IMG/VR virus record: IMGVR_UViG_3300028482_000001 | Span: 1 to 64,000 of that record | Origin: a virus | Taxonomy: Duplodnaviria; Caudoviricetes | DNA length: 64,000 nt | Strand: one strand, 5' to 3' | Shown here: positions 1,718 to 52,673 of the stretch, piece after piece | Position numbering within the stretch: the stretch's first letter is position 1 | Layout: the number at the start of each line of letters is the position of its first letter | Program-made: the position numbers and the translations under genes | Notes under the pieces: model-generated | Databases searched by the model: none | The model's input: the letters and a program-made list of their open reading frames with translations, nothing else | Told to the model about the DNA's origin: nothing

Positions 1718-2090
1718 TTTCTACAGTTCCTTTTTGTGTTGATTTAAAATCTAACATTAATTGTTTAATTTGCTTTTTTAGTTCTTCATTCTCTTTTTCA
1801 AGTTGTTCTGATTTTGAAACATAACTTTCAGCGGCTGTATTAATAGTTGAAATGTAATCTTCCATTAGGAGTTTTCCATTTTCGGAACTGTTAATAAAAA
1901 CCACTTTATTCTGTTCAAAGAGATAGTCAATGAAAGCAGATAATAAATTTTGTTTTGCAATTAATACAGATTCTTGTTTACTTACAAACACTTTTTGTTC
2001 GTTACTCATTTGAGCTAATATTTGTTCATATTTATTCCAATACGCATTAGTTGTTTGATAACGTTCAAAATTTAAATTATAATTGTTCAT
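1695..2090 (-). CDS. Hypothetical coiled-coil protein
   Basis: 131 aa, RBS GGAG upstream on minus strand. Confidence 0.6.
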   Translation of the reverse strand: MNNYNLNFERYQTTNAYWNKYEQILAQMSNEQKVFVSKQESVLIAKQNLLSAFIDYLFEQNKVVFINSSENGKLLMEDYISTINTAAESYVSKSEQLEKENEELKKQIKQLMLDFKSTQKGTVENESKTTK

Positions 2091-10218: not shown

Positions 10219-10858
10219 AGTAAAATTTGTAATAAGAAAAGAAGTTCATGATGAGTTAGTGGAAAAGTTGAATTATAAACCTAAAATATATGTAATTTTT
10301 AATCATGAAGAAGATTTTGTATAAAAAGGATTTAATTCTGCTGTGCATCCGAGAGATGAAAAGGGAAGATTTACAGAAAAAGGAATAATGGAACTATCAG
10401 AAAAAGATAGAGAATTACTTTTAGATTATTTAGAAAAAGAAACTTATGAAGATTTTGAAGGTATAAAAGTTTCTGTTGGAAAAATAGATGCTGTAAGAGA
10501 AGGAAGATATAAAGATGAAGTAGAAACTTGTAAAAAAATAAAGATGTTAGGTTTTGATGTTTATTTATTAAGAGAAAGTTATTCTAATAACAAAAAGGCT
10601 GATATTTTTTATAAATTATTTAATGATAGAGATTTTATGGAAATAAAAAATACTGGGGAACATAAACTAATAACAAGATTTAATGAAACAAAAAAACAAG
10701 CTCCAAGTTGTTTCATTTCTATTAAGGATGAAATAACTTATAACAAGTATAAAAAATTGAAAGATGAAATAAAAAAAGATAATAGGAATGGGTATGTAAT
10801 TATTGAATACAAAGGCAAGTGTAAGGTTTTAAAACAAAAAAAACCCCCGCCCCGATAG
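10211..10858 (+). pseudogene. Putative head-cargo protein with CdiA-like PD-(D/E)xK nuclease domain, split by in-frame TAA at 10322
   Basis: MSKVKFVIRKEVHDELVEK...DFV*KGFNSAVHPRDEKGRF... in one frame; ADIF...FMEIKN nuclease-like motif; track ORF 10343-10858 is the 3' part. Confidence 0.6.
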
Positions 10859-11000: not shown

Positions 11001-11054
11001 AATAAGATAATATAGTAGATTAATTTTTTTGTCAATAAAAAAAAGGAGAAATAA

Positions 11055-19617: not shown

Positions 19618-19976
19618 GAAATACTAAAAATAGTATTGACAATTACTAATTTTAGTATTATAAATATAACCATAAAGATTAATTTAAGTGTACCACAGGT
19701 GCATAAATTAATCAATTCTAAATAAAAGTGTTAAAAATAATACTTTTATACTTGACAAATTATTTATTAAGTATTATAAATAATACTCACAGAGTAATGA
19801 AGAACGCACACCGCAGTTCTTGATTGCTCTGTCAGGGCAATCACCGATAATGTTGTAGGTGAAAACCTCTGGCACAAGTCTTTCAGCGGTGAAAAGGCTT
19901 GTGCCTTTTTTATTTTCCTAGTGAAGTTGCGTGTCGCCAAACTCTTAACTTCACTAGGACTTAAAGGAGGTGTCTT

Positions 19977-20732
19977 ATGACACCCACAACTACATTATCG
20001 GTAAATTTGGAAAATAGTTTACCACAAAATCAAAATCCTGTCCAACAAAATTGGTATACAATCGAAGAATTGGCAAGTTTAAGTGGTTTTTCAGTTGAAA
20101 CATTAAAACACGGAGAAAACAATCTTTCTAGTATTATGCGAATAATGAGTATTAACTTTGAAGTTAATACTCGTTTAGGTGGTTATCACAACACAAAGAA
20201 ATTCTATTCAGAAAATGTATTAAAAGCTCTTAAAGAATATCAGATTAAAAACTCTACTCCAAATGCTGTAAAAGAAAAGTCAACTGTTATTGAAGGAAAT
20301 GTTAATTTCATCCAAACAGACACTTTTAATAAAACAATACAAGGGCTTTTGGATAATCCAGATGCTTTATTATGTCTTATAAATGAAAGTTCAAAAAGAA
20401 TTCAAGCACTTAATACAAAACTCATTGAACAACAACCTAAAGCCGACTACTACGACAAATTCATTGACAGCACAAATTTAATAGAAATCGGACATCTTGG
20501 AAAATCAACAGGAATTGGCGAACAAAAGATTTTCAAAAGATTAGTTGTAGAAGGATATATCAAAGTTAGATATTCAACAGACGGAGTTAAATATTATGAC
20601 CCTTGCTATGGGTATGAAAAATATTTCAAATCTGTATCTGTTCCTTTTTTACGAGGTGAAAAACAACTAAACAGAGAAAAGTTAATGCTTACATCAGTGG
20701 GAAACAATCAGGATGAACAGAAACAGGAATAG
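19977..20732 (+). CDS. Antirepressor-like protein (ANT/KilAC C-terminus)
   Basis: EQQPKADYYDKFIDSTNLIEIGHLGK. Confidence 0.7.
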   Translation: MTPTTTLSVNLENSLPQNQNPVQQNWYTIEELASLSGFSVETLKHGENNLSSIMRIMSINFEVNTRLGGYHNTKKFYSENVLKALKEYQIKNSTPNAVKEKSTVIEGNVNFIQTDTFNKTIQGLLDNPDALLCLINESSKRIQALNTKLIEQQPKADYYDKFIDSTNLIEIGHLGKSTGIGEQKIFKRLVVEGYIKVRYSTDGVKYYDPCYGYEKYFKSVSVPFLRGEKQLNREKLMLTSVGNNQDEQKQE

Positions 20733-37310: not shown

Positions 37311-37487
37311 AAACTAACTTAAAGGAAGGTAAATATGGAAACAATTAAAAGCTTTATTAAGTACTTGAAATTGTCAAAAAAGTATAAGGATGCAATAAGA
37401 AAAGTGATAGATAGTTTTTATGATGAATACAAATTGAAAAACTAACACTTGAAACAATTATAAACATGTAATAAAATTAATATGAAC

Positions 37488-39613: not shown

Positions 39614-42600
39614 ATGGGAAAACTAGTAATTAAAAAATCTGTTGCAAATCAAATAACAAGCAAATTAAAAACTCATAAAAATGATGATATAACGCCCGAA
39701 TTTGCAGAAAATCTGCAAAAATCGGACTTATTTTCTGAAAATAAGCAAGTTTCAGTCAAATTACAGTCAAATAAAAATATAGGTGTAACTCCTGATGATT
39801 GTTATTATGATTTAGATAATCCCACAGAGAAATTTTATTATGATTTGAAAATGAAATTTGCTCAGAGTGATAAAGCAGATGATATTGAGAAATCACATAA
39901 ATATATAAGACGATGGAAAATGAATAATGGTGAATGGAGATATGAATATCCAAAAGGGGTTGATAAAAAAATACATTCATTTAGAGATGTAACAACAGCT
40001 CTAACAAATAAGACAACAGAAATAAAAGATATTCAACCATTAACAACAGAAAAACAGATTGATGCAGAGCTTGAAAGATTAACAAAACTTTCAGAAGAAG
40101 GAAAACTTACTTGTCCGGCTTTAGGAAATGCAAATATTTACATTGAAGATATGACTACAGAACATGCAGAAAAAACAAACGGTGTATTTAGAACAAAGGA
40201 AGCTAAAATTCATAAGTTACAATATCTTTCTTTTGTTGAAGATGTTCTTAAAAATGGTATTCTATTTATGAAATCACGTAAATACAATCATGCTTGGTCA
40301 TTAGATAAGATTTCAGAAAGAGAAAGAACTACTTATGGAATTATTAACAAGGTTACATATTTTGACAAAAAGAAAAATAAAAACATAACATGTGGAATGG
40401 AAATTGTTGTTGCGTGGGATAATGAAAGAAAAAGGTTTGTGTTTTCATTTATTGATAGACAAATAAAAAAATCCTTGTTATTTAACAAGGATTTTCAAAC
40501 GACCACTTTCGAGGCGGGTCAGGTAGGTGCTTGTAAAACAGAGGCTTTTTCTACCACCGACTCTATAATACCACATTTGATAAATTTGTCAAGTAGAAAT
40601 GTAAATAAATCCCTTACTTATTCTGGTTATAAATTACAAGGTAGAACTAGACTTTATGGCATGGATATTTCCATTGAAAATAAAAAAGGAAGTTATAGAT
40701 GTGGTGTAGATTCAGATGGTCATAAGTGGGAAATTTTAATGCACTATGATTATGGATATATTAGGGGAACTGTAGGAGTAGACAAAGATCACTTAGATTG
40801 TGTAAGCCCAGAAACAAAAATCTTAATGGCTGATTATACTGAAAAAAGTGCTGCAGATATAAAAGAAGGCGACGAACTTATTGGAATTAAATTAGAAACA
40901 CAACAGCATAAGCAGCGAAAACAGATTAAAACTAAAGTTATTCATGTCAAAAAAGGTATGGATGATATGCTAGATATTACTCTTGAAAATGGTGTAAAAC
41001 TGAGAACTACTAAAGGTCATTTACATTATTATTTTCAAGGTAAGACAAGAGATAAGTATTGGAAGCGTGCTGATGAATTAAAAATTGGTGATAAACTTGT
41101 AATGATTTACAATCATCATAATTTTGAAGAAACAGAAGATTATAAAAAGGGTTATCTCTTTGGAGCTTATATCGGCGATGGATGTTATAATTTTGATGAA
41201 TCAAAACAGGTTTATTGTGATATTAGAAAAGGCGTTGCTTTTATTGATGTTATACATAGAGTAAAACAATATTGGAATGATTTAGGTTTAGAAACATCTA
41301 AGATAAGAATAGACAAACCTAGACAGACAAATTCTTTATTAGCAGATGGTAGAAAAGTTATATCTAAAATGGATTTAGCTATATTATCTATTAGAGGTAT
41401 AAACAAAATAAGATATATTAAATCAATTCTTGTAAAAAATCCTAAATCTTTTGAATGGTGTCGTGGTTATATCGCTGGTTTATTTGATACAGATGGATGC
41501 TTGAATTGTAGACATGAATTCCTGATAACTCAAACCAAAAATCAAGATGAATTTATGAAATTTACAATTGAATGTATTAATAAATTGGGTTATCAAGCAG
41601 TAAAAAGATACAATGAAATTAAATTACATACAGATTATATGGCTGATAATATAACAATGGAGTTTACTCAAATTATTAAGCCAGCTCTTGAAAAGAAAAG
41701 AAACTTTTTAGGCCAAACTTATAGATATGAGCCATTGGAAATTGTGGATATAAAGCCATATACCGGGGAGTTTGTTGCTATTCAGACTGATGAACAGACA
41801 TATATTGCAAATGGACTTGTAACACATAATTGCTATGTTGGACCAGATAAAAACACAAAAAAAGTTTATGTAATTCATCAAAACAATCCTATTACTCATA
41901 AATACGATGAAGATAAATGTATGTTGTGTTTTGAAAGTGCAGATGCAGCCAAAAAAGCATATATGAAACAATATGATAGACCAGGATTTTTTGGAAGTAT
42001 GGAAACATTAACTGTAGAACAATTCAAAACTTTTGTATTTTCAAAACAAGGTAGTAGAATACACAAATCCTTTGATATTGAAATAACTGATATTACTGAA
42101 AATAATAAGCAAAGAAAAGTTGAGCAAGTAGAAAAGGCATTAAACGCTATTTATAATAACAAACCTTTTGTAATTGAGCATATTTCAAAAAAATTAGATT
42201 TCTCAAGAAAATATAATGATATTTTAATGAGAATTACTGATTTTGATAAAAACAAAATTGAAAAAGCTGTACATTCATTGGCATTTACATTAGATACTAA
42301 AGTTAAGGCAAGTAAAGGAGAGGCCTTTGTATATGCCAGTCAGGAAGATTTAACAAATCAGATTGTTAATGAAATTACTGAAAAAACAAAAAAGATTTAT
42401 AATTTCGTAATTTCATTTTTTGACTTACCTGAAATTACTATCGTAAGAAAAGCAAATTTAATTCATAAAGGGAAAATAATATACAATCCTGAAACAGGAG
42501 AACCTGTGAAAAAAGCAGAGTGGGATAAATTTGTAGAAGAATTAGAAAAAATGCTTAATAAAAATTATATGGGGTATGGTGAAAAAATAGTTTTAAAAGG

Positions 42601-43261
42601 TGAAACGTTAGGACTGATTTTAGATCGTCTTGCAAAAACTAATTCTTTTGAAGCAATTCAGAAGAAAAAACTTTCGGACATTGTATATAAACGAAAACAT
42701 TTTGATTGGATTTCGGATGATATAAAAAATTTAAAAACTATTATTGGTGAACCTATATCAAGGGAACGGGCAGCAAGAATTGAAGTTGCGATGCAGAGTG
42801 TAGGGCAAAGAATATCAAGGGTAAAAGATTCTCTTAAAAATGAAATCCAGCAAGTTATTATTGACGGAATTAAAAACAAAGAATCGAAGAGAGTTGTTTC
42901 TCAAAATTTGTTTGATAAGTGTGTAGGACTTAATCGAGATTTTCAAAAAATTGCAGATAGTGAAATCCAAAATACAGTTAATAATGCATATATCAAAGAA
43001 GAAGTTTTTAATTCAGACGAAAATGAAAAAATCTATTTTAAAAGGTTTGAAGTGATAGATGATAACACTTGTTCAAAATGTAAAAAAATAAAAGGGAAAC
43101 TTGCACTTTATAGCAAAGTTCCTTTGGATGATGAACATATCAAGGATGAGTATGCTGATTATGCAATATGGGAAGGTAAAGTAGATGGAGATTTGCCTAT
43201 GGGGATATTGCATCCTTATTGTCGTGGATCGTGGGTTAGGTATTATCCGGAGGTTGATTGA
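39614..43261 (+). CDS. Polyvalent MuF-type head protein: nuclease-like domain, inorganic-pyrophosphatase-like domain split by an intein, C-terminal MuF domain
   Basis: DYGYIRGT.G.D.DHLD|CYVGP..DEDKCML; C-terminal TCSKC...LHPYCRGSW. Confidence 0.75.
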   Translation: MGKLVIKKSVANQITSKLKTHKNDDITPEFAENLQKSDLFSENKQVSVKLQSNKNIGVTPDDCYYDLDNPTEKFYYDLKMKFAQSDKADDIEKSHKYIRRWKMNNGEWRYEYPKGVDKKIHSFRDVTTALTNKTTEIKDIQPLTTEKQIDAELERLTKLSEEGKLTCPALGNANIYIEDMTTEHAEKTNGVFRTKEAKIHKLQYLSFVEDVLKNGILFMKSRKYNHAWSLDKISERERTTYGIINKVTYFDKKKNKNITCGMEIVVAWDNERKRFVFSFIDRQIKKSLLFNKDFQTTTFEAGQVGACKTEAFSTTDSIIPHLINLSSRNVNKSLTYSGYKLQGRTRLYGMDISIENKKGSYRCGVDSDGHKWEILMHYDYGYIRGTVGVDKDHLDCVSPETKILMADYTEKSAADIKEGDELIGIKLETQQHKQRKQIKTKVIHVKKGMDDMLDITLENGVKLRTTKGHLHYYFQGKTRDKYWKRADELKIGDKLVMIYNHHNFEETEDYKKGYLFGAYIGDGCYNFDESKQVYCDIRKGVAFIDVIHRVKQYWNDLGLETSKIRIDKPRQTNSLLADGRKVISKMDLAILSIRGINKIRYIKSILVKNPKSFEWCRGYIAGLFDTDGCLNCRHEFLITQTKNQDEFMKFTIECINKLGYQAVKRYNEIKLHTDYMADNITMEFTQIIKPALEKKRNFLGQTYRYEPLEIVDIKPYTGEFVAIQTDEQTYIANGLVTHNCYVGPDKNTKKVYVIHQNNPITHKYDEDKCMLCFESADAAKKAYMKQYDRPGFFGSMETLTVEQFKTFVFSKQGSRIHKSFDIEITDITENNKQRKVEQVEKALNAIYNNKPFVIEHISKKLDFSRKYNDILMRITDFDKNKIEKAVHSLAFTLDTKVKASKGEAFVYASQEDLTNQIVNEITEKTKKIYNFVISFFDLPEITIVRKANLIHKGKIIYNPETGEPVKKAEWDKFVEELEKMLNKNYMGYGEKIVLKGETLGLILDRLAKTNSFEAIQKKKLSDIVYKRKHFDWISDDIKNLKTIIGEPISRERAARIEVAMQSVGQRISRVKDSLKNEIQQVIIDGIKNKESKRVVSQNLFDKCVGLNRDFQKIADSEIQNTVNNAYIKEEVFNSDENEKIYFKRFEVIDDNTCSKCKKIKGKLALYSKVPLDDEHIKDEYADYAIWEGKVDGDLPMGILHPYCRGSWVRYYPEVD
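40463..40560 (-). ncRNA. Candidate antisense structured RNA (unit C), inside ORF
   Basis: Minus-strand TTGACA(40592-40587)-16-TATTAT(40570-40565) with upstream TG; ends in AAAATCCTTGTT/AACAAGGATTTT hairpin and U tract. Confidence 0.6.
40799..41830 (+). mobile_element. Intein with LAGLIDADG homing endonuclease (344 aa)
   Basis: Starts CVSPET, ends VTHN followed by Cys; GAYIGDG and AGLFDTDG motifs. Confidence 0.9.
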
Positions 43262-47291: not shown

Positions 47292-50200
47292 ATGGGAAAA
47301 ATGGCAAAGATTATTGTTAATTTGAATGAATTAAAAGGATTTTCTTTTTATCGTAATTACATAGAAAAGGCGAAAAAGGGTGAAATGGTTGGTGGTAAAT
47401 ACATGTATAGGGAAGAAGTTCCTGAAAAAGTAAAAACAAGTAAAGGGAAAACTACCGTAATTAGATATAAATATTATTATTTGACAGATATGCTTAAAGA
47501 TAGTGCAGAAAAACTTCTTGAAAATATCGGTAAATTCTTTTTCAAGGGAAATGAAAAGGAAGTAAAAAAAATTGAAAATTCCTATAAAACTCAAAACATA
47601 GAAAAAGATTATGGAGCAGATAAAAAGACGTGGTATCAGCATTGTATGGAATATTTGAGCCACAAAGCAAAATGGGATAAAAGATTTTCAAATAAAGATA
47701 ATGCTGAAAAGTTTAAAACACCTATCAAACAAAAAGTCGTAGAAAAAGTTGATATTCCCGGAATGGAAACAGCAGCAGTAGAAACTCCAGAAATTAAAAC
47801 ATCAATTGAAACAGAGAAAAAAGAGGCAACCTGGAAACCCAACCCATCTTTAATGCGTAAAGTTTGGAGTTTATACAATGGTGTAGAATCTGTTAATAGC
47901 GGAGTTAGCGTTGGTGATACTGTAAATTTTAATGGGCGAAAAGGAACTGTAACAAAAAAAGTAAATGACAATATGGTTATGGTAAGTTTTGAAGATGGAG
48001 GTTTAGGCAGATTCTTTGCAAAAGACTTAAACAAAGTTGAAATTTCAAATGAAAGTGTAACAAATGAAGCTGATGTAAATGGTAAAATACAAGAAGTTGT
48101 AACAGGGCTAAATACTTCTAATGATACAGTTGAAGAAACAACGGATGGACAAGGTAATAAAATTGCAATGTTAGGTAACCAGAATGCAAAAAAGAATTTC
48201 GTTGACTTTATTGATAAGTTTATTACAAATGGTTATAAATCTGATAAGGTTGTAAATCTTTTAGATACAACACCTTTAATTTTGCAAGAACATGGTATTC
48301 CAAATAATCCTATAAGTATAACACCTTCTGTTTTGAAAAAGATTTTAGAAAATGATTTAAATGTTTATCATGGTCATAATATTTCTGTTGATATTTTAAA
48401 GGATCTACCTAATCAACTTGAAAATCCTGTTTATATACTGAAAGGTAAGGATGGGAAAAAGATTATTGTTACAGAATACTATGTAGAAAATAGACCTATA
48501 ATTACAATTCTTGAAATAGATAGAAAAGAAGGTCGTACAAATGTAAATTCTGTAAGAAGTTTATATGATAAACAGAATACTGTATTTATGGAATGGATAA
48601 AAGATGATTCCATAGTTGAATATGAAAATAAAGAAAAAAGTAAGGTGCTATTACAGTCCATAGGTAACCAATATACCAAGGAGGTAACAACACCTTACAT
48701 AAATAATAATACCACAAATATAGAAAATGTCAATAGTGAACATGGGAATTCTATAGCCATGCTTGGTAATGATAATGCTAAGAAAGATTTTGTTGATGTA
48801 AAACAAGGTTTTTCTGAAATGGATAAAAAACTTCTTGCTTTAGCATTGTACAAAGAAAAAGAATTTAATCCAACAATGAATGATTATTATTATTATGAAA
48901 AATTAAGATATAAATATCCTAATTTAGCTTCTAAAGGTAGTATTTATTCAATTATGGAAGAATTAAAAGGAATAGATGTTAAAAATATAAACCTTGATGA
49001 AGTAAAAGAGTATGTAGAAAAGATTAAAGGTGGGGGTGATGAACCGCCAAAGAATGATGCAAAAAAGAATTTCGTTGACGGATTGTCGCTTGATACAGAG
49101 TTAATTGCAAATGCAAATAATTCTTCATATATGTATGAAGCTGGAGATGCTATTAATCGTGAATATCTTGGCGGAATTGAGGCTATCAATTCATGGGATT
49201 TGACAGATGAAGAAAAACAGAAAGCTAAACAAAAACTTTTTGAACTTACAACGGAACAGTTAAAAGCCCAGGCAAAGGCTATATCTGTAACAGTCGCAGG
49301 ACCAGCTAGGAAAGTAAGTGGAAGTGATACAGCATTTGATAAAGTTCAGAAAATCCGTGGGAAAATTAAAGAACTTCTTGATACAATAAGAGCTAAAAAT
49401 AATACAAATGTTCAGAAACAGGAAATGAAAGATTTTACAACAGCAGCAACAGAGGCCATGAATAATAATAAACTTGCTTTTGTGTATGATGGTAAAGTTT
49501 ATTATCGTGGTAATATAAAATCAAGCTCTTGGAGTGAAATAAATCATATTCCAGAAGTTGATGAAACAAAGACTGTTGATGAAAAGAAAAAAGAGTTGAA
49601 GAAACTCAAAGAAGAAAGTAAGAATCTCGGTTTTGCTAATCCAGAGAACACAAAAACCCTTGATAGAATTGAAAAACTTAAAAATGAAATTGCATATATG
49701 AATACTGATGAATGGCAGAATCGACATAATGCCATGCTCGGTAATCAAAACGCAGCAAAACCATTTTCAGAAGAAGAAACAAAAAAAGAACAAAAGAAAG
49801 TAAAGGAAACAAGAGAAAAAGCAGGACTACCTAAAATAGGAATAAATTATGGGGAGAGAGTTTCTGCTATGGAAGATTCAGTTTCTCTTAATCCTAATGC
49901 GGAAAACTATGCTTATAAAGATACAGGTTATATTGCAGGTTCTCAAAAAGAAAAGATTCAAGACTTTTGGAAAATAAAAAAGGAAAGTGGTGAAGGAACA
50001 AGTATAGAAGAAATAGATTGGAATACACTTGAAGAAAATCCTAGATATGCAGAACAACAAATTACAAAATCAAATATTCTTGGAAATATTGATTATAATT
50101 CATTCAAAGAAAAAGGAATGGATTCTAGGGCAGCGTATTTAGCAAGTAGAGTATTTGCCGCAATTCCAAAAGAACCTACAGGTCATGATGTTACTGCTCG

Positions 50201-52226
50201 TAAGAATTATGTAATTGCTATAAACACAGTAAAGGAAAGACTTTCTGAATGTAAAACTTTACAAGATGTAAAAGAGTTTGTTGATGATGTTTATGGTGAA
50301 TATAATCAGACATTTGATTCTCAGATTTTAAGAGTTCCAGAAGTTAATAAACTAACACAAGAAAGAGATGGTATTATTAAAGAGAAGAAAAAAATTAGAG
50401 AATCTGTTATGGAATGGTGTAGGAATGAACTTGTTCCAAAATATAAGAATCTCGGTAAAAAAGAAAGAAAGGCTTTTTGGAGATATAGGGAAGAATTAAA
50501 GAAAGAAATTAGTGAGAAAATTCGTGAATTTGATCCTAATTATAATAATCCTAATATAGATATTGAAATTGATACAAGTAATATGTGGTGGCCTATAAAT
50601 ATTTCCTCAGAAGGTATTTTACAAGAGAAAATAGATAAAGCTAATAATAAATTAAAAACAGCAAGAGAAAACGCAAAAAATATCATTATGAATAATAATG
50701 TTACTTATCAAGTTTGGAAAGAACTAGGGGATTTTGCAGATTTGCGTTATTCAAAAACATTCCAAAAACATTATAACAATCTGACAGTTTATGATGAAAA
50801 ACAAGCAACAAAACCTAATGGCGAAATTTACGAAACTTATGCTTATAAATATAGAGATAAAGAATATGATAAATATGAAAATTGGGATTGGATTGATAAA
50901 AAAACTAATAAAAAAGCAAAACCGGAATCTGAGATAATCGAGGGGAAAGTAAAGAGAACTTTTGAAATGATTGTGCCATCTACCATAGAAAGGATTGGAG
51001 GTAGAAATGTTTCTGTTAAATCTACAGAAGAATTAAAAAAAGCATTTAATTTCAGGGATATTCAAACAGGGTCTTATGTACAATCAGATCCCGTTAGTGC
51101 TAAATGGCATATAGACAATTTAGCGAATGGTTTCGCTGATTTATGTGATGTTTTGGGGATACGAGATGATCAAGTATCTCTTAATGGAAGGTTGGCTCTT
51201 GCTGTTGGTGCTAGAGGACATGGTAGAGCCTTAGCACATTATGAACCTGTTGAACGAGTAATTAATATTACAAAATTCAAAGGTGGTGGTTCTCTAGGGC
51301 ATGAATGGTTTCATGGTTTTGATAATATGATTGCCGAAGCAATTACAGGTGGAAATGTCAGTGTATATATGTCAGATCCAAGAGCAGCAAGTAAAAAATA
51401 TAGGTTGCATGATGATATTCCAGATAATGAACTTGCTCATAATGTAAGAAATAAATTTATTAATCTTGTAGATGCAATGATGACAGGTGATACTCCTGAA
51501 ACAGAAGTAATTACATATAAATCTATAGATGTAGAAACAGCAAAAAAATTCTTTGAAAAAGATTTGCCATTCCAGGCTGCATATTATAGTTATGGTAATG
51601 ATTTTTATAAGAAATTAGCTAATGCAAAAACTCTTGATGATGCAATATCAGTAATTAATGAAAGGTATAAAGATACAATAAATCTTATTCATAACAATTC
51701 AGAAAAAATTAGTCGCATGGGTAAATACGAACAAAAACGCATGAAAGATACAGTTAAAAATTATGAAAAGTATCGAACTATGGCAGTTGCATACTTTGAT
51801 ACAAAGGCTGATAAATCTAATGGTGGAGAAGTTTCTGTAAAGACAGGAAGAATTGTTTCAAGATTTTATGAAGATTCAAAAAAATTAGATATTGGGAGAT
51901 CTAAAAAATATTGGTCTGAACCTGTAGAAATGGCTGCAAGAGCATTTGAAGCTTATTTAGTTGATAAATTAAAGGAAAAAGGTCAGAAAAATGATTATCT
52001 TTCAGGTCATGCTGATAATACAGTTTATTTAGGGGAATGGTTTCCATATCCAACTGAAAAAGACAGAGTAAAAATAAATAAAGCCTTTGATGAATTATTT
52101 GAAGTAATCAGAAATGAAAATGCAATTAGAAAATCTTTAGATATATTAAAGAATCGTGAAGAAATAAAAAAATCACTTCCTTTATTCTTTATTAAAAATG
52201 GCAGATTCTATATTAGAAAATCATAA
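47292..52226 (+). CDS. Large polyvalent protein: MuF-C/PBECR-like domain, internal AMLGN repeats, C-terminal LPD1-like metallopeptidase
   Basis: LPNQLENPVYIL...VNSVRSLY; SLNGRLALAVGARG...SLGHEWFHGFDN...YWS.P.EMAARAFE. Confidence 0.75.
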   Translation: MGKMAKIIVNLNELKGFSFYRNYIEKAKKGEMVGGKYMYREEVPEKVKTSKGKTTVIRYKYYYLTDMLKDSAEKLLENIGKFFFKGNEKEVKKIENSYKTQNIEKDYGADKKTWYQHCMEYLSHKAKWDKRFSNKDNAEKFKTPIKQKVVEKVDIPGMETAAVETPEIKTSIETEKKEATWKPNPSLMRKVWSLYNGVESVNSGVSVGDTVNFNGRKGTVTKKVNDNMVMVSFEDGGLGRFFAKDLNKVEISNESVTNEADVNGKIQEVVTGLNTSNDTVEETTDGQGNKIAMLGNQNAKKNFVDFIDKFITNGYKSDKVVNLLDTTPLILQEHGIPNNPISITPSVLKKILENDLNVYHGHNISVDILKDLPNQLENPVYILKGKDGKKIIVTEYYVENRPIITILEIDRKEGRTNVNSVRSLYDKQNTVFMEWIKDDSIVEYENKEKSKVLLQSIGNQYTKEVTTPYINNNTTNIENVNSEHGNSIAMLGNDNAKKDFVDVKQGFSEMDKKLLALALYKEKEFNPTMNDYYYYEKLRYKYPNLASKGSIYSIMEELKGIDVKNINLDEVKEYVEKIKGGGDEPPKNDAKKNFVDGLSLDTELIANANNSSYMYEAGDAINREYLGGIEAINSWDLTDEEKQKAKQKLFELTTEQLKAQAKAISVTVAGPARKVSGSDTAFDKVQKIRGKIKELLDTIRAKNNTNVQKQEMKDFTTAATEAMNNNKLAFVYDGKVYYRGNIKSSSWSEINHIPEVDETKTVDEKKKELKKLKEESKNLGFANPENTKTLDRIEKLKNEIAYMNTDEWQNRHNAMLGNQNAAKPFSEEETKKEQKKVKETREKAGLPKIGINYGERVSAMEDSVSLNPNAENYAYKDTGYIAGSQKEKIQDFWKIKKESGEGTSIEEIDWNTLEENPRYAEQQITKSNILGNIDYNSFKEKGMDSRAAYLASRVFAAIPKEPTGHDVTARKNYVIAINTVKERLSECKTLQDVKEFVDDVYGEYNQTFDSQILRVPEVNKLTQERDGIIKEKKKIRESVMEWCRNELVPKYKNLGKKERKAFWRYREELKKEISEKIREFDPNYNNPNIDIEIDTSNMWWPINISSEGILQEKIDKANNKLKTARENAKNIIMNNNVTYQVWKELGDFADLRYSKTFQKHYNNLTVYDEKQATKPNGEIYETYAYKYRDKEYDKYENWDWIDKKTNKKAKPESEIIEGKVKRTFEMIVPSTIERIGGRNVSVKSTEELKKAFNFRDIQTGSYVQSDPVSAKWHIDNLANGFADLCDVLGIRDDQVSLNGRLALAVGARGHGRALAHYEPVERVINITKFKGGGSLGHEWFHGFDNMIAEAITGGNVSVYMSDPRAASKKYRLHDDIPDNELAHNVRNKFINLVDAMMTGDTPETEVITYKSIDVETAKKFFEKDLPFQAAYYSYGNDFYKKLANAKTLDDAISVINERYKDTINLIHNNSEKISRMGKYEQKRMKDTVKNYEKYRTMAVAYFDTKADKSNGGEVSVKTGRIVSRFYEDSKKLDIGRSKKYWSEPVEMAARAFEAYLVDKLKEKGQKNDYLSGHADNTVYLGEWFPYPTEKDRVKINKAFDELFEVIRNENAIRKSLDILKNREEIKKSLPLFFIKNGRFYIRKS
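48634..48700 (-). ncRNA. Candidate antisense hairpin RNA (unit D), inside ORF
   Basis: Minus-strand TTGACA(48733-48728)-16-TATTAT(48711-48706) with upstream TG; 15-bp stem GUAAGGUGUUGUUAC/GUAAUAGCACCUUAC then U6. Confidence 0.65.
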
Positions 52227-52284: not shown

Positions 52285-52463
52285 TGATTTTTGACCAGAA
52301 GCTCCAACTGAGCATATTGATCCTTATTGGGGAGGTTGTACAGGGGAATATGCAAAAAAAAGAATGAAAGAACTTGAAAATGGTGTAAATGTTTTATAAT
52401 AAAATCTGCAACTAGTTTTAAAAGAGTGATATATAAGACCTTGTTAAACGCAAGGTCTTTTTT

Positions 52464-52673
52464 TTATAATTCTTTCCCATCTTTAAGAAACTTTATTTCA
52501 ATTCCTAACTGATCACAAATTTCAATTATATCACTTAGTTTTAAATCATTTCTATATAATTTGTTAAACAGATTTTGTTTAGAAGTATTTAACTTTTTAG
52601 CTAGATCTGTAATCCTGATATTATTTTTTATGCAGCCAATTTCTATAATTTCTTTAATATTAATTTCATTCAT
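52464..52673 (-). CDS. Small XRE-type HTH protein
   Basis: ITDLAKKLNTSKQNLFNKL. Confidence 0.75.
   Translation of the reverse strand: MNEINIKEIIEIGCIKNNIRITDLAKKLNTSKQNLFNKLYRNDLKLSDIIEICDQLGIEIKFLKDGKEL

Follow-up and report, generated by a model that had tools for sequence, protein, structure and literature searches.

A candidate antisense RNA gene overprinted on the linker of a phage polyvalent protein

The host gene and its antisense unit

The DNA analyzed here, hereafter the window, comprises positions 1 to 64,000 of the virus record IMGVR_UViG_3300028482_000001 (Duplodnaviria; Caudoviricetes), which is 80,555 base pairs (bp) long, carries direct terminal repeats and has a GC content of 30%. 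An open reading frame (ORF) of this window, encoding a polyvalent head protein, bears on its opposite strand a compact element that we call unit C. This unit spans 128 nucleotides (nt; 40592-40465, minus strand) and is composed of a promoter, an RNA body of about 94 nt including the terminator region, and a final run of seven uridines (U7). The putative RNA covers codons 285-316 of the 1215-codon ORF. Apart from unit C, scans of both the 64-kb window and the whole 80.5-kb genome found no strong promoter-plus-terminator pair in antisense orientation within a long ORF. Positions of the main features are given in Table 1.

The ORF encodes, in order, a leader, an N-terminal effector-like domain reaching to about residue 283, a linker (residues 284-331), an InPase domain and a MuF-like C-terminal part. 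Pfam and PHROGs searches recognize the InPase domain (PF18823, E = 8e-37), which is split by a LAGLIDADG intein at about residues 405-739, and give a weak match to MuF at the C terminus. Judged from this domain content, the product is a phage polyvalent protein, in which MuF is combined with polyvalent-protein-associated domains. Residues 1-283, that is, the leader and the N-terminal domain, have no Pfam match, and a Foldseek comparison of the N-terminal domain with the PDB returned no match at E <= 0.001; its best fold matches, all weak, are to toxins of the RelE/BrnT/ParE, CdiA-CT and colicin D types.

The unit C promoter agrees with the sigma-70 consensus at 11 of 12 hexamer positions, has in addition the TG of an extended -10 element, and is the top-scoring promoter-like site between 36 and 46 kb. 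Read in the plus frame, it gives the peptide ..IIPHLINLSS... The A/T-rich stretch upstream of the -35 hexamer, whose context TTTTTACTTGACAAATT is kept in all cassette types, is a possible UP element. From the position of the -10 hexamer, the RNA is predicted to start at about 40558-40560. In the body, an 8-bp stem with a 2-nt bulge (P1) encloses a small hairpin with a variable triloop, and is followed by a second hairpin (P2) capped by a GAAA tetraloop and then by a single-stranded U-rich spacer. The terminator stem has 12 perfect pairs, or 13 with a terminal G-U pair, and reads IKKSLLFNKDF in the plus frame; its CCTTGTTAAA..CAAGG core is shared with one of the phage's own intergenic terminators (52440-52470, plus strand). 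The GC content of the body is 41-43%, compared with 30% for the genome, and the body folds modestly better than shuffled sequences (z = -2.4 to -2.8). An earlier reading of the window, made without database searches (the sequence-only reading), had proposed an antisense promoter, a GC-rich structured RNA and a perfect terminator hairpin inside this frame; all are present where it placed them, and the linker peptide reads as it was quoted.

Table 1. Location of unit C, its elements, the enclosing gene and the related unit D in the window
Feature	Positions	Strand	Description
Polyvalent head-protein ORF	39614-43261	+	1215 amino acids; encloses the whole of antisense unit C
-35 element TTGACA	40592-40587	-	Sigma-70-type promoter, consensus match
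-10 element TATTAT, extended by TGg	40573-40565 (hexamer 40570-40565)	-	16-nt spacer from the -35 element
A/T-rich stretch upstream of -35	40593-40615	-	Plus frame RNVNKSL, part of the NLSSKNVxKSL imprint
RNA body	40497-40558	-	P1, P2 and single-stranded U-rich spacer (RNAalifold, pair counts)
Intrinsic terminator	40465-40496	-	Hairpin 40496-40467, loop AAAT, then U7
Unit D	48620-48740	-	TTGACA-16-TGgTATTAT, hairpin with a 15-bp stem including G-U pairs, U6; inside ORF 47292-52226

Conservation, strand and related units

We compared the DNA of eight homologues with 65-78% amino acid identity in a codon alignment (seven of the sequences are distinct), scoring those codon columns in which the amino acid is invariant and degenerate. 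From the -35 hexamer to the U-run, unit C is nearly frozen and constant in length, whereas third positions in the flanks vary freely. Synonymous variation affects 3 of 31 columns in unit C, with 1 of 17 for the body alone, and 90 of 187 in the pooled flanks (Fisher p = 2.7e-5); by region of the gene, the counts outside unit C are 59/143 in the N-terminal domain, 31/44 in InPase and 192/247 after the intein. Likewise, the pairwise synonymous difference in a sliding window falls to 0.02-0.04 at 40484-40590, compared with about 0.2 in the flanking sequence, and reaches 0.3-0.5 in the MuF part. The sequence-only reading had called for just such a comparison, and the outcome, a near-invariant unit between free flanks, is the opposite of promoter and hairpin positions drifting at synonymous sites.

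The few differences within unit C are informative. Both promoter hexamers are invariant in the eight homologues, while the spacer between them occurs in four versions, some of which alter amino acids. The L-S-S codons are always TTG-TCA-AGT, and those of a nearby KSL vary. Four versions are found of the 3-nt hairpin loop and five of the terminator loop, and the U-rich spacer before the terminator is also variable. Fixed hexamers combined with a free spacer and free loops are what a promoter followed by a folded RNA would show. All 26 base pairs are retained in the seven distinct sequences (RNAalifold and pair counting), and variable columns amount to 6 of 52 paired positions versus 17 of 55 unpaired ones. 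The terminator stem changes by compensation only (TTGTT/AACAA, TTGCT/AGCAA, TTACT/AGTAA): two pairs are compensatory (G-C to A-U and C-G to U-A), both in the terminator, and there are two further one-sided changes to G-U. The synonymous freeze, the variable spacer and loops and the compensated stem changes together give good support to the earlier suggestion that such low-complexity linker peptides may be by-products of hidden RNA genes, and the suggestion extends to about 31 linker types, as described below.

Several observations bear on the strand. The two one-sided changes yield G-U pairs in a minus-strand RNA and would be C-A mismatches on the plus strand; the GAAA tetraloop caps P2 on the minus strand; and U7, an A7 run on the plus strand, is invariant in the homologues. 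The Ts that had been noticed after the hairpin on the plus strand are just TTTTC in the window, with ATAAAAA in every homologue. Because this plus-strand T-run is not conserved, the accompanying proposal that the hairpin might attenuate sense transcription finds no support. The G-U changes, the GAAA loop, the invariant U7 and the lost plus-strand T-run fit only a minus-strand RNA. We consider it highly probable that unit C contains a functional RNA gene on the minus strand.

To find related units, the promoter context was searched as a 28-nt pattern in viral, metagenome and genome collections. Most matches are ordinary intergenic promoters, including that of a tRNA, and the pattern therefore resembles real strong promoters. 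Matches inside long antisense ORFs are few and are all in polyvalent proteins. In these, the promoter block TTGACAAATTATCACAATGCGCTATATT (peptide NIAHCDNLSSKNV) precedes differing bodies of 70-130 nt with multi-stem folds, each ending in a stem and a U-run. Loci combining promoter block and structured body are L003, L005, L007/L194/L249, L023, L110, L218 (with a weak terminator) and L223. The L007/L194/L249 trio offers no independent test of conservation, its whole effector block being nearly identical.

The peptide imprint of the promoter, [LMK]SS[KR][NK][VI]xKSL, is present in 67 of 110 InPase homologues. In 66 of these 67 it is preceded by at least 150 amino acids, as expected of an effector-type domain, and it is found in none of nine leader-only proteins and in none of 17 proteins in which MuF precedes InPase. 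About 31 clusters are formed by the linkers that lie upstream of the imprint. For eight linker types the DNA was checked, and each has a promoter, a structured RNA and a U-run; for most types the promoter is deduced from the peptide alone. Domains upstream of the imprint include LPD3 (L007, L249), MuF_C (L005) and the window's own family (also in L218 and L223). On this sequence evidence, the unit is the 3' border of a swappable effector module, and body and terminator travel with the domain.

The sequence-only reading had seen the -10 context recur in another unit, unit D; indeed, the exact 11-mer TGTGGTATTAT occurs once more, at 48716-48706 on the minus strand, within the tape-measure ORF and again in a TTGACA-16-TATTAT arrangement. 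The unit D hairpin is far more stable than expected (z = -6.8, minus strand), and the plus strand is 8 kcal/mol weaker. Unit D lies antisense behind a MuF_C-like insert, flanked on both sides by IAMLGNxNAKK repeats, in the tape-measure protein. Its long hairpin has a homologue in the MuF_C cassette of L005; a U-A pair is swapped for A-U between the two, and several of the pairs are G-U.

Searches for known identities were negative. Rfam, at gathering and at relaxed thresholds, assigned no family to the window or to six related loci, and the relaxed matches are terminator-like noise. ARAGORN and the Rfam tRNA model found no tRNA in unit C, and ARAGORN found none in 11 related loci. No match to the unit C region was obtained by blastn in a phage collection; the N-terminal half and the N-domain alignment have no close relatives among the viral contigs searched; and an exact 18-mer of the body produced two chance matches only. 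A covariance model of the RNA revealed no second copy in the window, its weak matches being LPD3-type cassettes and an ordinary phage terminator (52399-52468, plus strand). When the RNA was scanned for duplexes with 141 start regions of the genome, no outlier appeared, and the output was unreliable. We rejected an anti-Shine-Dalgarno role (CCUC/CUCC is only weakly enriched and the gene's own AAGGAGA site is unmatched), as well as an integron attC-like recombination site (no pairing joins its conserved ends, and its signals are of RNA type). Full-text literature searches found no paper describing RNA genes or an RNA component in polyvalent proteins.

Possible roles of the RNA

A predicted promoter of its own, a defined 3' end and conservation beyond the protein code, all of which are found at unit C, are the sequence criteria of a cis-encoded antisense small RNA (sRNA). 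We prefer to read unit C as an independently transcribed antisense sRNA gene, some 90-95 nt long, that overprints the linker between the domains and has a role resembling that of lambda OOP RNA; taken as a whole, this reading seems plausible, stopping just short of probable. As to the role itself, analogy makes an effector-linked control RNA, similar to lambda OOP or to a type I antitoxin, the most likely one. The analysis establishes the sequence elements of unit C, purifying selection on its nucleotides, a conserved minus-strand structure and the tie to effector modules; the transcription, target and physiological effect of the RNA we infer.

The following scheme may be proposed. Transcription by host sigma-70 RNA polymerase would begin where the near-consensus extended -10 promoter lies, at the 3' edge of the N-terminal effector module, run back across the linker and stop at the intrinsic terminator, exactly at the end of the effector domain. 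Body and terminator pass along with the effector domain in inheritance and exchange, and the promoter marks the 3' border of the module. Made constitutively, either in the lysogen or straight after DNA entry, the RNA would anneal to stray sense transcripts immediately past the effector domain, causing these to be cut or silenced. A potentially toxic effector fusion would thus be made only once late transcription swamps the RNA.

Several points weigh against this scheme. The promoter and terminator of unit C are consensus matches only. The body stems show no covariation, since they are invariant, and compensatory pairs are confined to the terminator. For this body type the sequences compared are few (eight, of which seven are distinct), related and mosaic. 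Divergence in the N-domain block is lower than in the remainder of the gene, and synonymous divergence dips a second time, less deeply, at about 40050-40180 (plus strand), over the conserved C..LGN..H core of the N-terminal domain. This dip shows two haplotypes and therefore looks like a recombination tract; we considered it as a second embedded element and rejected it on the same grounds. Given the less diverged block and the recombination-like tract, part of the conservation of unit C could reflect recent exchange. Folding energy does not favor the minus strand for the window body (-25.7 kcal/mol versus -27.1 for the plus strand), although it does separate the strands for unit D (-27.9 versus -19.6 kcal/mol) and for the L007 type. 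Finally, the compact RNA, its GNRA loop and its near-total sequence conservation exceed the needs of simple pairing in cis.

In the first of the alternatives, the RNA would act like a type III antitoxin or a decoy, binding the protein of the neighboring effector domain and neutralizing it. Such an RNA could protect the producing cell, turn off an injected effector after entry, or shield a lysogen from the same effector injected by a superinfecting phage; by analogy with toxin and immunity cassettes, each effector type would have its own RNA. Besides the compact body, the GNRA loop and the conservation beyond pairing needs, body and terminator co-vary with the type of N-terminal domain while the promoter/InPase block stays constant, MuF_C domains in two unrelated host proteins retain a homologous hairpin, and the weak fold matches of the N-terminal domain are to toxins. 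Co-inheritance of neighbors, however, accounts for the co-variation even if nothing is bound; the RNA lies on the other strand and has no ToxI-style tandem repeats or processing sites; and the domains concerned (window type, LPD3 and MuF_C) are putative nucleases or toxins. We consider protein binding unlikely. The RNA could also be a phage sRNA acting in trans, for which the linker is a safe harbor, with host or phage messages from elsewhere targeted, for example, through its exposed C/U-rich CCUC motifs, or a decoy against a host defense. A strong constitutive promoter of host type would fire right after DNA entry, bodies differ between phages as in an arms race, and CCUC/CUCC or CCUCC is found in six of nine body types, where about 0.3-0.4 are expected per RNA. 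This enrichment is nevertheless weak and confounded by the higher GC content of the bodies; no convincing target emerged, the duplex scan against phage start regions being uninformative; and this reading does not account for the units sitting strictly at the 3' border of effector modules. An action in trans seems improbable.

We may also hypothesize that there is no RNA function at all: unit C would be a block of homology through which effector modules are swapped by recombination, or a fold of the mRNA delaying ribosomes on their way from one domain to the next, and its likeness to promoter and terminator would be incidental. The unit sits exactly at module junctions, the modules are clearly exchanged, the conserved NLSSKNVxKSL block could be a crossover site, and in the window the plus strand folds about equally well. 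Yet a recombination block would not fix the hexamers while freeing spacer and loops, nor would it need compensatory stem changes. A stem and U-run, always on the same strand, closes at least seven different bodies; only the minus strand accommodates the G-U changes and the GAAA loop; and the 28-nt pattern otherwise matches ordinary intergenic promoters, including a tRNA promoter. This explanation is, in our judgment, very unlikely.

The preferred reading, an antisense sRNA with an OOP-like role, can be set beside several known systems. Lambda OOP is made in antisense from a constitutive promoter and covers 52 nt at the 3' end of cII; it lowers the activity of CII and suppresses its toxicity, and cleavage of the duplex by RNase III has been proposed (PMC5869508). 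Like OOP, the predicted unit C product is a short antisense RNA with its own sigma-70 promoter and hairpin terminator opposite a phage gene, here on the basis of sequence alone. Unlike OOP, which lies mostly between genes, unit C is wholly inside one ORF, where a linker joins two domains and translation presumably continues across it. Units of its kind are also modular: many effector domains have one at their 3' border, the promoter being shared and the bodies differing. The resemblance is functional and does not imply family membership, as the Rfam searches reveal no homology, in sequence or structure, to OOP or to any curated RNA family.

Type I antitoxin RNAs (the Sok, SymR and IstR class) and the RNA-OUT of IS10 are constitutive cis-antisense RNAs that block a harmful product arising from low-level transcripts. 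In those systems it is the translation start of a small gene, for a toxin or a transposase, that the RNA covers, whereas the unit C RNA would cover the region downstream of a putative effector domain; an overlap with the start or leader of a small toxin is not seen, the RNA lying well within the ORF. With the type III ToxI/ToxN system, unit C shares a possible pairing of a nuclease-like module with a co-travelling structured RNA. ToxI, however, consists of tandem repeats on the same strand as toxN, upstream of it, and is processed by the toxin; unit C is single, on the opposite strand and downstream, and it has no such repeats. Polyvalent proteins of phages were reportedly the subject of a 2017 study by Iyer, Burroughs and Aravind. 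As in these proteins and in polymorphic-toxin cassettes, variable effector domains are swapped here at conserved junctions, with InPase, MuF, LPD3 and MuF_C among the domains involved; unlike in polymorphic-toxin cassettes, the companion would be an antisense RNA gene in place of a gene for an immunity protein.

A broader and more speculative idea is that polyvalent proteins use an undescribed layer of immunity or control based on RNA, in which every swappable effector would have a cognate overprinted antisense RNA neutralizing either its protein or its message. This layer would be the counterpart of toxin-immunity cassettes, with a shared host-type promoter, exchange as one module and at least 31 linker types; we put it forward tentatively. 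If the RNA is indeed specific to its effector, this would be a new class of RNA-protein module pairing. The linker motif of dozens of polyvalent proteins (..NLSSKNVxKSL, IKKSL..) is the translated form of a predicted promoter and terminator of the other strand, with a whole putative RNA gene hidden in a reading frame that is kept open and presumably translated through. Such RNAs escape gene callers and are absent from Rfam, and part of the conservation observed in multi-domain phage proteins is imposed by the other strand. This raises the questions of whether phages control or neutralize their own cargo toxins with RNA and of why effector domains travel as cassettes.

Minor observations on the gene and the genome

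The LAGLIDADG intein (CVSPET...VTHNC, 40820-41830, plus strand) interrupts InPase at its DxDxxD motif. It is found in the window and in the homologue P0003; most close homologues (870-912 amino acids) are devoid of it. Some homologues have an optional helical module of about 60 amino acids (KSLFTDWKVELHH...AYKDLN) between the promoter imprint and InPase, as in L062 and L066; the corresponding junction in the window is at 40604. Every module junction repeats KSL (IKKSL, NKSLF, NKSLTYSG), which may be a cleavage or recombination motif.

Among the related loci, the L110 RNA (1719-1812, plus strand) forms a four-way junction, including a 5-bp stem with a 7-nt loop that resembles a T-arm. Its 3' strand passes directly into the U-run, and the tRNA-like shape is not accompanied by an ARAGORN call.

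In the genome of the window, an intrinsic terminator downstream of the tape-measure region (52399-52470, plus strand; GACCTTGTTAAACGCAAGGTC plus T9) has a stem core nearly identical to that of unit C. Strong promoter-plus-terminator pairs also occur in intergenic regions, at 11035 (minus strand) and at 37449, 53426 and 58272 (plus strand). The first of these, unit A, lies behind ORF 10343-10858, and the three plus-strand leader terminators precede late genes. At 19751-19977 (plus strand), a promoter ACTTGACAAATTAT..TATTAT stands before a leader or non-coding RNA of about 200 nt containing ACACCGCAGTT, comparable to sequences at L240, L256, L257 and L195. Relatives occur in Treponema/Spirochaetaceae metagenome-assembled genomes. 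Similar promoter-plus-leader units with a terminator are present in contigs of such Treponema genomes, which hints at a rumen or gut spirochaete as host.

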